Origin: a virus
Length of the DNA stretch: 24,873 nt
Reading direction: 5' to 3' (one strand)
Virus genome (UHGV): UHGV-0240820
Positions 2,999 through 21,927 of the stretch are shown here, piece by piece (position 1 is the first letter of the stretch; each line of letters opens with the position of its first letter). Below the pieces are notes generated by a model. That model was given only the letters and a program-made list of their open reading frames with translations. It had not been told where the DNA came from and made no database searches. Both the position numbers and the translations under genes were made by a program.

Positions 2999-3025
2999 AG
3001 CCAGCTCATCGGCTGGCTGTTTGTG
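2999..3025 (+). terminator. weak terminator-like hairpin after the terminase large subunit
   Basis: AGCCAGC (2999-3005), loop TCATCG, GCTGGCT (3012-3018), then GTTTGTG. The T tract is poor. Confidence 0.35.
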
Positions 3026-3034
3026 ACATGTCAC
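3023..3034. repeat. palindrome GTGACATGTCAC (second copy)
   Basis: Exact 12-bp match to the core of the 757-770 palindrome. Confidence 0.6.
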
Positions 3035-3038
3035 GGCG

Positions 3039-3461
3039 TTAGAAGGTTATTTTATCGAATGCGGCGTTGATTGCCTTGGCGTCCTGCTCAGCACCAACCA
3101 CATCAAGTAAAGATCTTTTACTAAGCACTTCAGCCAGGCATTGTAACTTCATGTTGTATAAGTTTTCGCGCATGTAATCATCATCACTTTTTTCTTTGGC
3201 GTATACAGCGCGAGAAATATCAAACACATTGCCTTTTTCCATTTCAGTTTTCTGCGCTGAAATCCAGTCATGGCAAGTAACTCCTATTCCATGGTCATCG
3301 CTAAGCGTTAACCCGGCAAGTCGCTCACCTGGAATTGCTTCACAAAGCATTTCATTTCCTGCAAAAACACCATAAAAAATTGAATCATCACCCTGAACAA
3401 TGCGTACATATTTGCACGGCCATTCATTTAGATATTTAGCTAGCATGTCGGCTGTTTTCAT
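3039..3461 (-). CDS. hypothetical protein (140 aa), reverse-oriented moron
   Basis: Clean ORF with AAGGTGA 4 nt upstream of the ATG on the minus strand. Convergent with the terminase genes. No recognisable motif. Confidence 0.55.
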   Translation of the reverse strand: MKTADMLAKYLNEWPCKYVRIVQGDDSIFYGVFAGNEMLCEAIPGERLAGLTLSDDHGIGVTCHDWISAQKTEMEKGNVFDISRAVYAKEKSDDDYMRENLYNMKLQCLAEVLSKRSLLDVVGAEQDAKAINAAFDKITF

Positions 3462-19191: not shown

Positions 19192-20043
19192 ATGAAAAAA
19201 ATAAATTTGTTTTTTGGCATAGTGCTTTCAATAGTCTCTGTAAATCCTACAGCTGCCAGTTCATTGCAATGCAATAAGGATAACTTTGATGCATGCAAAA
19301 CGTGTGAACAATTATCAAAGGCTATCGACTTAAAAGAACCTAATCGTGGCGATTACTATAGAGGGGCTTTATGGAATGGGCTTTACGCCTCTTATGTAAT
19401 TAATTGCCCTGTGGTTGCTGAGAAGTTACTGAGCCATGGTGCTATACCATCATATGGCGGATATATGGGGTCTATGGGGGCGGTTCTGACAGGAAAATGG
19501 CCTCATAACAATGAATCAATAAATCTTTCATGGGCAGATTTGCTTATAAAACATGGATTTGATGTTAATAGGCATACGGGGAATTATAAATCAGCTACTG
19601 AAGTATGGGCTATAGATAAAAAACAGATTGAATATAAGTCAGTTTTTGACAAGTTAATTCAATCCAGCGAAGTAAAACCACTCGATCCTTCAAGAAATTT
19701 AGAATGGTGTGCGTCTGAAGGGTATCGCTCAGTTGTCGTTTATTCCCTTAACTCATGTATAGAAAATGCTATAAAACGTTTGGATGATGGTGTTTCTTCA
19801 GCGTCTGATATTTCATCAGCAGCCGTAAATTCCTGTACTAGCGATGTAGAAAATTTCAATAAGCATTTGGCATGCAAAGCAGCTGTTAAAGAAAACTCTG
19901 ATAAAGAGAGAAGCGACGTTTACCAGTTATTAACCAGTGATAGTCAAATGAATAAAAATGTTATTGATATGCTGAAGGAAAGAAATATTGAAACGGTTCT
20001 TGAATTTAGAGCTGAAAATCGATCAGCGAAAACTGCACAGTGA
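19192..20043 (+). CDS. secreted protein of unknown function (283 aa, AT-rich moron)
   Basis: N-terminal signal peptide (MKKINLFFGIVLSIVSVNPTAAS), about 10 Cys, AT-rich codon usage unlike the structural genes. Start is 1 nt after the gp16-like stop. Confidence 0.6.
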   Translation: MKKINLFFGIVLSIVSVNPTAASSLQCNKDNFDACKTCEQLSKAIDLKEPNRGDYYRGALWNGLYASYVINCPVVAEKLLSHGAIPSYGGYMGSMGAVLTGKWPHNNESINLSWADLLIKHGFDVNRHTGNYKSATEVWAIDKKQIEYKSVFDKLIQSSEVKPLDPSRNLEWCASEGYRSVVVYSLNSCIENAIKRLDDGVSSASDISSAAVNSCTSDVENFNKHLACKAAVKENSDKERSDVYQLLTSDSQMNKNVIDMLKERNIETVLEFRAENRSAKTAQ

Positions 20044-20049
20044 TCAAAC

Positions 20050-20074
20050 AGGCCGCTTTCGCGGCCTTGTTTTT
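20050..20074 (+). terminator. intrinsic terminator
   Basis: AGGCCGC, loop TTTC, GCGGCCT, followed by TGTTTTT. Confidence 0.75.
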
Positions 20075-20234
20075 AACGAATGCCACCGCCGCCCGGGCGG
20101 GAATCCGCAGAACGCCCACCGCAGCGGGAGCCGTCAGCAGCAGTGTCGCTGTCGTGCTGACAACGACCGGCAAAGGCCTGAGTTGAAGCTACCAGAGACA
20201 ACAAAACGAACAGTGCAGCAAATGCTTTTTTCAT
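20073..20234 (-). CDS. small exported peptide candidate (53 aa)
   Basis: Internal Met of ORF 20073-20306 starts a classic signal peptide (MKKAFAALFVLLSLVASTQAFAG) followed by a 30-aa Gly/Arg/Asp-rich tail with 2 Cys. GC-rich, in contrast to its flanks. Confidence 0.35.
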   Translation of the reverse strand: MKKAFAALFVLLSLVASTQAFAGRCQHDSDTAADGSRCGGRSADSRPGGGGIR

Positions 20235-20315
20235 TGTGAAATTTCCATCTATAAGCCACCTCAATGTGGCGTCAATGAGTGTAGCACTGACTTTTGTTTC
20301 GTCCATAAAAAACTA

Positions 20316-20828
20316 CTATGCAGGCTTTTTGGATTTGTACGAATAATCCCACGGATAAACATTTCTACTAAGTGGAGCTGTATTCGTTCGTTCATGAAAT
20401 AATTTTGTGAAATTCAATACGGAATCCATCCAAACTTTTGCGTTAGCTTTGGTGTGTGCGGGCGGGTCCCAATAAGCTAGTAAGGCTGCATCTCTTATTT
20501 CATTGACTGCATATATGAGATATGCGTTACTGGTTGGTTTTGGCCTGTAATTTCCTTGTTCATCAATCAATCCATATGACCACTCATCCCAACACTGTTC
20601 AGTACATGAGTATGAATATGATGCATATTCACCAATATTGACATGAACCTTTCTGAGATGGAAGCCTAATACTTCGTCTGGTCTTTCAAAAAGAGTATCT
20701 TTTCCCAGATCAGGATGATGACCATGACGCCAGTGTTGTTTAAAAGCATCTTTTAGCGAAATCAGAAAGTCATCAGTTTTAAACTCACCAGTAGGTATAA
20801 CCTTCCCGCTATACTCACTCAAAAACAT
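20316..20828 (-). CDS. hypothetical protein (170 aa); candidate toxin/effector of a two-gene module
   Basis: Strong RBS (AGAGGA at 5 nt spacing). His cluster (HWRHGHH) and a Cys/Trp-rich segment (YSCTEQCWDEW). Start overlaps the upstream gene's 3' end by 14 nt. AT-rich. Confidence 0.55.
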   Translation of the reverse strand: MFLSEYSGKVIPTGEFKTDDFLISLKDAFKQHWRHGHHPDLGKDTLFERPDEVLGFHLRKVHVNIGEYASYSYSCTEQCWDEWSYGLIDEQGNYRPKPTSNAYLIYAVNEIRDAALLAYWDPPAHTKANAKVWMDSVLNFTKLFHERTNTAPLSRNVYPWDYSYKSKKPA

Positions 20829-21141
20829 CGAATTCCTCTTCCTTCATATGCGTTTCTAATGAGTTAAGCTGGCGGAAAGATATCTCTTTTGATTCTGCAG
20901 ATGAGAGCTTTTTTATCCGCTTGATATTCTTTGTGATAGGAATAGACATTGTATGCACATCAGCGGATGCTCTTGGCTTTGTGCTGATAAAAATATGGCG
21001 CAATGCCGCATTTTCACTATTGAACGAGCCAATAGCTGATTTACGTGCTACAACCTTACCAGTAAAAATACGACTCTTGCTACGCTTTGCATGAGTTCCG
21101 CTTCTTACCGGACCTCTCATCACGAATCCAAGTTTTGTCAT
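20815..21141 (-). CDS. hypothetical basic protein (108 aa); candidate partner (antitoxin/regulator?)
   Basis: GGAG RBS. Arg/Lys-rich N-terminal half and acidic C-terminus (HMKEEEFDVFE). First gene of the overlapping pair. Confidence 0.5.
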   Translation of the reverse strand: MTKLGFVMRGPVRSGTHAKRSKSRIFTGKVVARKSAIGSFNSENAALRHIFISTKPRASADVHTMSIPITKNIKRIKKLSSAESKEISFRQLNSLETHMKEEEFDVFE

Positions 21142-21183: not shown

Positions 21184-21226
21184 TTACCTTTAAGGTAATA
21201 GTACGCTATTCACCCCCGGTCTGCAA
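21184..21226 (-). promoter_or_regulatory. candidate sigma70 promoter with overlapping operator dyad
   Basis: Minus strand: -35 TTGCAG (21221-21226), 17-bp spacer, -10 TACTAT (21198-21203), overlapping dyad TTACCTTTAAGGTAA (21184-21198) by 1 bp. Confidence 0.45.
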
Positions 21227-21270
21227 TCTGTACAGAATTATTTAAAGGCACATCCCTGTGCCGCCGCCCG

Positions 21271-21927
21271 TCAGAAGAACCCTGCTTTGTCGTTGATGTA
21301 CTCCGCGTGCGTCTGGATATCACGCAGGCATTTGCTCACACCGACGATGTAGCAGAACATGGTGGTCAGTTCCGCCGCCGCGCCCGATACGTCGTGCCCG
21401 TCTTCCTGTAACTGGTTCAGCAGATTCATCAGCAGTGAGTTCTCCGTCAGGCCGAGAACACCAGACGGAGAATGAATCAGGCTGCGGTAGCCGGGCTTCA
21501 GCGGGGCACTGTATTCTTTTTTGTCTTCCAGCTTGATCGCCTCCATAATGGCGGGCATGAAGCCTGACAAGACCTTCTCCACTTTTGTTTCTTGTTGTCT
21601 TAAACGTTTCTCGCATTCAATGAAGTAGCGTCGCACCTGGCGACCTTTTTCGTTACGCTCGACCATCGCCAGCTCTTTGGCTGTATCAAGGGTGAGGTGG
21701 TACTCTTTGCGGTTGTGGCCGCCTCTACCAGATGTTTGCTTTCCCAAATTGGAAAGCAAAATATAGTCTTGATTTTCAATGAATTCGTATTCTGATATGC
21801 GATTTGTAATCCATGCTGCAAACACCTTTTTAACACCTAAAAAAGCGTGCAGATCGCGGGCATTACAAAGTAGGGCTGTTTCGTTAGATATAGTGCCGTT
21901 GAATACGGGGATGAGTTGAGCGTTCAT
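21271..21927 (-). CDS. phage antirepressor (AntA/Bro-N-type N-terminal domain plus C-terminal domain)
   Basis: N-terminal sequence ([12 protein letters not shown]...[32 protein letters not shown]) matches the conserved AntA-type antirepressor domain as I recall it. GGAG RBS. C-terminal 80 aa are paralogous to ORF 23077-23334. Confidence 0.75.

Follow-up and report, generated by a model that had tools for sequence, protein, structure and literature searches.

Does a short GC-rich open reading frame (ORF) lying among AT-rich phage genes encode a protein and, if so, of what kind? The question is raised by one locus of the UHGV virus genome UHGV-0240820, whose 24,873 nucleotides were analyzed as a whole and are called the window below. 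A first-pass annotation had placed on its minus strand a 53-codon ORF that might encode a small periplasmic peptide or be non-coding, and the ORF was found at exactly the coordinates claimed (20073..20234). It encodes the precursor MKKAFAALFVLLSLVASTQAFA|GRCQHDSDTAADGSRCGGRSADSRPGGGGIR* (the bar marks the predicted cleavage site). The coordinates of all features are given in Table 1.

The reported contrast in base composition is real: the GC content of the ORF is 0.58, versus 0.37-0.41 for its neighbors (0.369 for 19192..20043, 0.388 for 20316..20828 and 0.407 for 20815..21141). It is 0.383 in the upstream spacer and 0.483 over the whole window. Within the ORF, the signal part (first 22 codons) has a GC content of 0.44 and the mature part (last 31 codons) of 0.68. 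By codon position the mature part reaches 0.72 (position 1), 0.75 (position 2) and 0.56 (position 3); the excess lies in positions 1 and 2, not 3, and is therefore due to Gly, Arg, Ala, Pro and Asp codons. An origin as foreign GC-rich DNA was rejected because the excess is confined to these two positions. The tail, described as rich in Gly, Arg and Asp with two Cys, indeed contains 8 Gly, 5 Arg, 4 Asp, 4 Ser and 2 Cys among its 31 residues. The ORF had also been called antisense between genes: it does lie on the minus strand, but the word antisense is misleading since no other gene overlaps it. The plus-strand gene 19192..20043 converges on it, and the next three minus-strand genes run in its own direction.

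Table 1. Features of the locus, in coordinates of the window
Feature	Coordinates	Strand	Remarks
Mobile cassette	20048..20312	-	265 bp: promoter-like region, 5' hairpin, SD, ORF, terminator
Maximal ORF in the same frame	20073..20306	-	77 aa from ATG 20306
Putative -35, TGGACG (4/6)	20300..20305	-	16 nt before -10; read from sequence
Putative -10, TACACT (TAnnnT)	20278..20283	-	from the upstream alignment
Stem-loop GCCAC-ATTGAG-GTGGC	20255..20270	-	predicted mRNA 5' end
SD-like GGAA	20243..20246	-	8 nt before ATG
ORF	20073..20234	-	ATG to TAA, intact, 53 codons
Sec signal peptide (predicted) MKKAFAALFVLLSLVASTQAFA	20169..20234	-	codons 1-22; predicted SPase I cut after Ala22
Mature peptide (predicted) GRCQHDSDTAADGSRCGGRSADSRPGGGGIR	20076..20168	-	codons 23-53; 31 aa
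Stop codon TAA	20073..20075	-
GC-rich hairpin AGGCCGC-TTTC-GCGGCCT	20050..20067	both	shared by two convergent transcription units

Protein family and predicted export

The gene and its family are already known and annotated, and are ordinary in kind. A CDS is annotated at the same coordinates by PGAP, GenBank and PHROGs. The product is the RefSeq entry WP_000708858.1 ("hypothetical protein"), AEW24557.1 of phage TL-2011b ("putative transmembrane anchored protein") and Orf11 (QGF19617.1) of phage phiv142-3; its UniProt counterpart A0A0A1A7U0_ECOLX is a "transmembrane anchored protein", a name shared by the phmmer relatives (70-100% identical) and which is a topology guess only. The protein belongs to PHROG 14503, which it matches over residues 1-53 of 53 (E=2.3e-40). 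Relatives returned by protein searches come from Klebsiella, Citrobacter, Cronobacter, Franconibacter, Salmonella, Pectobacterium, Dickeya and others. When 1.84 billion representative proteins were searched with a profile, 372 matched at E<=1e-3, and a second search gave 662 clusters ranging from Proteobacteria to Cyanobacteria. Genome scans located members in Enterobacterales, Pasteurellaceae, Acinetobacter, Pseudomonas, many Rhizobiales and other Alphaproteobacteria, Burkholderia, Paraburkholderia and Cyanobacteria. A literature search on the accession, the family name, the DGSRCG motif and the carrier phages found no paper on the protein. The study of phiv142-3, an APEC prophage, analyzed orf10, the neighbor on the upstream side, and linked it to serum resistance; orf11 was not among the serum-induced genes.

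The commonest form of the family is a precursor of 46-56 aa, ending in a module of 26-28 aa, C-x12-C-G-x-R-[SA]-A-x-x-R-P-G-G. In an alignment of 58 sequences the stop falls 0-4 residues past the GG of the module, and ten residues are invariant: C25, A32, G35, S36, C38, G39, R41, R46, G48 and G49. The stretch from C25 to G49 is nearly invariant among the relatives returned by protein searches, unlike the signal part, and the module itself changes little from E. coli prophages to Rhizobiales, Burkholderia and Cyanobacteria. Longer members carry it right after the signal peptide or at the extreme C-terminus, sometimes twice; in some relatives it lies beyond a membrane helix, outside the membrane. 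Among 89 longer members scanned, a few also have PG_binding_1 or bacterial SH3 (SH3b) domains, and these fusions were individually confirmed for two proteins (P0194 and P0156). Chromosomal, non-phage copies exist as well, for example between bacA and ffh.

The mature peptide is predicted to be about 3.06 kDa and slightly basic (pI about 8). AlphaFold2 models it with a pLDDT of 79 and a beta-bridge around the A-A-D-G-S turn. No structural match was found for the peptide or the module; a profile search of PDB sequences gave at best E 0.22, to a loop of a cellobiohydrolase, which we took as chance. The Pfam scan of the peptide returned no match even at E<=1, and when the longer relatives were included the module was left unmatched in Pfam, NCBIfam and PADLOC. 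NCBIfam gave just weak chance matches (HxsA3 and MarB) through the signal peptide, and PADLOC-DB 2.0 none for the ORF or its six neighbors. A likeness to the CKPHDC loop of Ivy-type lysozyme inhibitors was considered and rejected, for want of a conserved His and because the loops are not of the same length.

Export was examined on the same 58 family members, aligned on the first Cys. The precursor of the window is laid out as MKK (n-region), AFAALFVLLSLVA (h-region) and STQAFA|G (c-region), and the description of it as a canonical signal peptide holds by the classical rules, whose features are conserved throughout the family. Ala occupies position -1 (three residues before the first Cys) in 55 of the 58 members, a small residue (A, S, V or T) position -3 (five before the Cys) in 57, and Gly position +1 (two before the Cys) in 56. 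The n-region holds 1-2 Lys or Arg within the first six residues and the h-region is an uncharged stretch, typically of 12-21 residues. Following the classical -3/-1 rule, the predicted cleavage junction is A-x-A|G-[NP]-C. The signal-peptide part diverges freely among homologues yet remains hydrophobic. On these features, Sec export followed by cleavage by signal peptidase I (SPase I) after Ala22 is very probable. Together with the relatives in which the module lies outside the membrane, they lead us to infer a periplasmic location. A lipoprotein processed by SPase II was rejected: the lipobox L-[AS]-[GA]-C with Cys at +1 is absent, two residues (G-R or G-N) separating Ala22 from Cys25 in 56 of the 58 members. 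A single variant, from Cronobacter (..AYAAC), approaches a lipobox. In some relatives combining a lipoprotein signal and a helix, a naive reading of topology puts the module in the cytoplasm.

Were the hydrophobic segment not cleaved, the product would be a signal-anchored inner-membrane mini-protein (N-in/C-out), possibly a regulator of the MgrB type whose periplasmic Cys pair modulates a sensor kinase or a transporter. MgrB-type proteins are small membrane proteins with a periplasmic Cys pair, and the resemblance is real: about 50 aa, one N-terminal hydrophobic helix (residues 2-15 in the AlphaFold model) followed by a short tail with two conserved cysteines, and a predicted periplasmic location. 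The database name "transmembrane anchored protein" goes in the same direction, as do relatives whose module has a membrane tether, either a helix of its own or a lipobox. However, outside the module nothing is as conserved as the A-x-A|G-[NP]-C junction, which is expected of a cleavage site but not of an anchor, and which predicts release from the membrane, whereas the hydrophobic part evolves fast (dN/dS up to about 0.3-1). No known small regulator, MgrB included, was seen to resemble it in sequence. We therefore judge the anchored form unlikely, and retain the cleaved, soluble peptide.

A small Cys-containing exported peptide, on a mobile element and next to toxin-antitoxin-like genes, could also bring to mind a secreted toxin, a bacteriocin or a RiPP precursor directed against competitors. 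Such an activity is very improbable: genes for immunity, modification or export do not recur beside it in 90 loci, its leader is of the Sec type and not a double-glycine or RiPP leader, and the module also forms a terminal domain in ordinary envelope proteins and occurs in chromosomal contexts of a housekeeping kind. A RiPP or microcin was rejected on the missing partner gene and the Sec leader. More generally no neighbor of any kind was found to recur across the 90 loci; therefore the protein probably acts alone, on a target conserved among hosts.

Coding evidence and choice of the start codon

To evaluate coding, the DNA of six distant homologues was compared with the window. The 53-codon frame is under strong purifying selection: synonymous differences have reached saturation (pS 0.6-0.8), and for the mature part most pN values fall within 0.05-0.15 (range 0.01-0.18). 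Over the 25 core codons, position 1 is variable in 6, position 2 in 3 and position 3 in all 25. Ser codons alternate between AGY and TCN among homologues. Conservation of the frame, which had been suggested as a check, was examined on seven divergent sequences, homologues from Klebsiella, Cronobacter, Pectobacterium and Dickeya being among those compared: the ORF frame alone is free of stops in 7/7. Homology stops at the borders of the ORF, the flanking DNA being unrelated in distant loci. On this comparative evidence, 20073..20234 is almost certainly a genuine protein-coding gene.

The same frame is open as far as ATG 20306, so that the true product could be a 77-aa protein in which the hydrophobic segment is internal. 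PHROG 3117 (77 aa) is matched with E=4e-36, and several metagenome gene calls are 66-85 aa long. This longer product is nevertheless very doubtful. N-terminal extensions are unrelated or missing among homologues whereas the MKK start is conserved, which is why ATG 20234 is preferred over ATG 20306; the extension would moreover overlap the conserved TAnnnT and hairpin region described below, and PGAP and GenBank call the 53-aa form.

The last alternative, an accidental ORF within a GC-rich spacer, a terminator region or a small RNA between convergent operons, draws on the shortness of the ORF, its weak SD and the adjoining bidirectional terminator, but is hardly credible given the variation restricted to position 3, a frame open in all homologues, the AGY/TCN switches, saturated synonymous sites beside a nearly invariant peptide, homology ending at the ORF borders, 662 protein-level relatives, and a scan of 19700-20600 with the Rfam 15 covariance models that returned a single chance match (E=0.32) outside the ORF. 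The non-coding option left by the first-pass annotation is thus discarded, the reading frame being conserved among homologues.

The cassette and its prophage context

Judged by its sequence, the window is an E. coli prophage of the temperate, phiV10/epsilon15-like kind (Uetakevirus): at 99% identity, the region matches both E. coli chromosomes and temperate podoviruses of this type. The ORF belongs to the accessory region that separates the ejection-protein genes from those of the antirepressor and the tailspike. On one side are found a 283-aa gene and the gene of a large ejection-type protein (DUF919); on the other side a YafO-like/108-aa pair, an AntA/Bro-N antirepressor and the tailspike region. 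A megablast search with positions 19900-20400 of the window gave matches covering 149-413 of the query, i.e. a block at 20048-20312 that is common to TL-2011b, phiv142-3, HEMP4 and Phi05 contigs with 98-99.6% identity. This block is the 265-bp cassette of Table 1.

The cassette seems to carry its own expression signals. In an alignment of the upstream regions of 13 divergent Enterobacterales loci, the T, the A and the final T of TAnnnT are the sole invariant columns, and a TGG-type hexamer is present 16-17 nt 5' of this putative -10 in 6 of the 13 loci, the window included. A consensus promoter scan called no promoter here, as TGGACG-N16-TACACT scores 8/12, below its threshold. In Klebsiella the terminator of the upstream operon directly precedes the cassette, which favors a promoter of its own. 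We consider it fairly probable, from these alignments, that the gene has its own weak sigma-70-like promoter and is expressed in the lysogen. In the window itself, read-through from the upstream YafO-like operon is an equally possible source of transcription.

Just downstream, 12 of the 13 loci have a predicted hairpin in the same position. It starts 6-9 nt after TAnnnT (6-7 nt in 11/13), and its arms vary by lineage while being still complementary: GCCAC/GTGGC, GCCGC/GCGG, GCTGC/GCAG, GCCGTC/GATGGC and ACCACC/GGTGGT. Of the cells in the hairpin alignment 87.7% are paired, compared with 26-61% when the partners are slid. Compensatory changes affect 3 of the 5 pairs, and a covariation score as high was reached in none of 500 shuffles. 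As the sample is small and the sequences are related, this covariation is supportive, not conclusive. A GGA or AGG motif lies 8-14 nt 5' of the start in nearly all Enterobacterales homologues, with variants such as AGGAGG (locus L011) and GAGG (the lambdoid contig L012).

At the other end, the GC-rich hairpin at 20050-20067 provides the cassette with a terminator. The terminator scan calls it on the plus strand, where the T-run is good (20068-20075) and faces the convergent late operon; on the minus strand the T-run is weak (GTTTGAT). A GC hairpin is found ~5-30 nt past the stop in 16 of the 17 homologues examined, the exception being Rouxiella (L024), often with a T-run on the strand of the gene itself. 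The homologous stem-loop is annotated as a terminator in the phiV10 record.

Presence of the cassette varies between close relatives. Five Uetakevirus phages carry it (TL-2011b, phiv142-3, HEMP4, EC.W1-9 and ZX5). It is missing from phiV10, save for a 48-bp end that comprises the terminator and the final ~24 nt of the reading frame; this remnant (...GGGGIR*) directly adjoins the antirepressor gene at its end. In typing phages 9 and 10, too, only these 48 bp are matched. Full copies, i.e. covering at least 80% of the ORF, were counted in 436 of 5426 complete E. coli genomes (about 8%), and about 70 others hold a partial copy only, which in the four matches listed consists of the last ~39 nt. 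Carriers include ExPEC and APEC lineages. The identical protein is encoded on at least 1000 contigs, and 336 relatives were found in IMG/VR.

The flanks are mosaic. From 400 bp on each side of the cassette in 76 IMG/VR contigs with an identical 53-aa protein, we distinguished at least 10 unrelated upstream and at least 8 downstream classes, in 47 combinations. Homologues are situated as follows: in a podovirus prophage of Klebsiella, behind a Bro-N antirepressor and small genes; in Cronobacter and Pseudomonas alloputida, between the ejection-protein genes and the tailspike gene, as sieA is in P22; at one locus, after a RelB/YafQ pair; in Pectobacterium and Dickeya, between tail genes and a MuF_C polymorphic toxin; and in the lambdoid contig, 9 nt after a Rap1a-like gene that follows cI (Peptidase_S24). 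This last position is that of rexAB in lambda, and the cI-Rap1a-gene arrangement is the best hint that the gene may be expressed in the lysogen. A functional link with the adjacent YafO-like toxin-antitoxin pair was rejected, the upstream neighbor being different in most carriers.

By these properties the cassette can be classed as a phage moron: accessory, mobile and with mosaic flanks. Morons, in the sense of Juhala and Hendrix, are exemplified by gp15 of HK97 and by bor and lom of lambda. Like them, the present gene is a dispensable extra that comes with a terminator of its own and an apparent promoter; it is lodged among conserved phage modules, has a composition unlike that of its neighbors and is present or absent among close relatives. 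Unlike characterized moron products, its product has no sequence relationship to any of them. Phage morons are described in PMC3573123, where the moron studied is a different one.

Known systems and possible role

Taken as a whole, the best explanation of the locus, and a likely one, is a coding, autonomous moron cassette for a small exported Cys-loop peptide. Having a putative promoter and a terminator of its own, the gene could therefore be expressed in the lysogen apart from early and late phage transcription. Transcription would start from the weak sigma-70-type promoter TGGACG-N16-TACACT, independently of these phage programs; the mRNA would begin with a short protective stem-loop and end at the shared GC hairpin. 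The 53-aa precursor would be exported by Sec and cleaved by SPase I after Ala22. C25 and C38, which DsbA could join, would be oxidized and close a 12-residue loop, which would display the invariant D-G-S turn and have the R-x4-R-P-G-G tail after it. The soluble 31-aa peptide would then act in the periplasm and bind a component that diderm envelopes share.

What this activity is for can be approached by comparison. Phages encode several exported or envelope proteins of superinfection exclusion: Sp of T4, Sim of P1, SieA of P22 and Cor of phi80. The peptide shares with them a phage origin and a predicted export to the envelope. It differs by a far smaller size, by the lack of homology and of any PADLOC match, and by the existence of non-phage chromosomal homologues. 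Since these homologues exist, the family does not imply a role specific to phages such as superinfection exclusion, and they show that the ancestral role is cellular. Our best guess for the phage form, which is tentative at most, would be lysogenic conversion in the form of envelope protection, e.g. by blocking an incoming phage or a periplasm-acting toxin; the position in phage genomes, the cI-operon arrangement and the Rap1a neighbors fit with it.

By eye, the module itself resembles the extracellular Ca-binding domain Excalibur (PF05901, DxDxDGxxCE). In its core, D-x-A-x-D-G-S-x-C-G, the Asp, the Asp-Gly and the Cys are spaced as in Excalibur, and both are extracytoplasmic (by prediction, for the present module) mini-domains bounded by Cys. 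In contrast to Excalibur, the central Asp is replaced by an invariant Ala, the first Asp is often Gln and the distance to the first Cys differs. A calcium-binding site of the Excalibur kind was rejected on the invariant central Ala and the lack of a Pfam match at E<=1. More speculatively, the module may be an unrecognized extracytoplasmic mini-domain binding a universal component of the envelope, with the stand-alone form captured by phages protecting the envelope of the lysogen. We hold this proposal as a whole to be improbable. The target would be for example peptidoglycan or a Tol-Pal-type component, and the phage form would be a plug-in lysogenic-conversion cassette against incoming phages or periplasm-acting toxins. 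The A-[SA]-D-G-S core of the module (ASDGS) recalls the TolB box of colicins.

For annotation, these results mean that the ORF is genuine and that its 53-aa start is the correct one; its product is better termed a small exported (probably periplasmic) prophage accessory protein than a "transmembrane anchored protein". The locus also offers a clean and compact example of a moron, with a putative promoter, a 5' hairpin, an ORF and a terminator within 265 bp, that moves among mosaic phage backbones. As for the family, this mini-domain is widespread and extremely conserved, and the peptide is small enough for chemical synthesis, which makes it a cheap target in the search for a new envelope interaction.

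Gene neighbourhood of the small gene

The genes flanking the small gene (53 codons, predicted to encode an exported two-cysteine protein) were analyzed on both sides. Directly upstream lies the pair formed by the YafO-like gene and the 108-aa ORF (see table). The overlap of these two reading frames suggests that they are likely a toxin-antitoxin pair. At the equivalent relative position, the E. coli locus L011 carries a RelB/YafQ pair.

On the other side, the late operon ends with the 283-aa gene, which converges with the small gene on the shared hairpin, a GC-rich stem-loop terminator. The sole match of its product is PHROG 6118, of unknown function, and the protein has a signal-like N-terminus of its own: MKKINLFFGIVLSIVSVNPTAASS. 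In the Klebsiella relative L005 the same slot is taken by a Rap1a-domain gene, so the 283-aa gene, too, is probably an accessory gene with an exported product.

The antirepressor gene was considered as well. GC content climbs to 0.57-0.585 in its C-terminal half, and PhiV10p22, annotated separately in phage phiV10, corresponds to the last 29 residues of the window antirepressor. These two observations indicate that the gene contains a mosaic joint and that phiV10 is probably mis-annotated at this point.

Coordinates of the features surrounding the small gene in the window and in locus L012
Feature	Location	Strand	Remarks
283-aa ORF	window 19192..20043	+	AT-rich, GC 0.37
YafO-like protein	window 20316..20828	-	Pfam E=9.5e-4, below cut-off; PGAP: YafO family toxin
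108-aa ORF	window 20815..21141	-	14-nt overlap with the YafO-like ORF
AntA/Bro-N antirepressor gene	window 21271..21927		GC-rich C-terminal half, window 21200-21600
cI-type repressor (Peptidase_S24), Rap1a-like gene, then small gene	L012 4927-6153		lambdoid contig

5' hairpin and partial copies

A short hairpin with compensatory changes in its arms (window 20255-20270) lies 3' of the invariant TAnnnT, the putative -10 hexamer of the cassette. An equivalent site is present in loci L004-L006, L020-L027 and L029, and in most loci a CTACACA-like box follows downstream. This hairpin may stabilise the 5' end of the mRNA, or it may act as an operator or attenuator.

Like phiV10, some 70 complete E. 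coli genomes carry the small ORF only as a partial copy. The phiV10 remnant (L003, ~3001-3048) consists of the terminator and the last ~24 nt of the ORF; in the four partial E. coli matches listed (H78-H81), the match spans its last ~39 nt. These partial copies are either the scar of a deletion or a joint left by recombination, and lie in the GC-rich 3' end.

Variant family members and the lambdoid arrangement

Homologues L048, L049, L053 and L056 (Burkholderia, Paraburkholderia) and the longer proteins P0072 and P0119 possess a lipobox or signal peptide, a second hydrophobic helix and a Gly linker, followed at the extreme C-terminus by the Cys-loop module. Naive topology predicts a cytoplasmic module in these two-helix members, in contrast to the form where it directly follows the signal peptide. 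P0080 has a weak NCBIfam "invert_tail" match (E=0.078). A more distant subtype has four cysteines, CPCPYN..NGS.CG.RSAYS.PGG..P.CYP.DV (P0115, P0121, P0123, P0181, P0187), in some cases as tandem repeats. In P0181 a single copy adjoins a segment that looks Excalibur-like by eye; Pfam gave no match for this protein at E<=0.1.

In the lambdoid contig L012, the small gene follows the cI-type repressor and Rap1a-like genes after a 9-nt gap, with a P22_Cro gene divergent from it. The Tolumonas locus L028 was grouped with L012 for this arrangement. The small gene of L012 holds an immunity-operon position comparable to that of rexAB.
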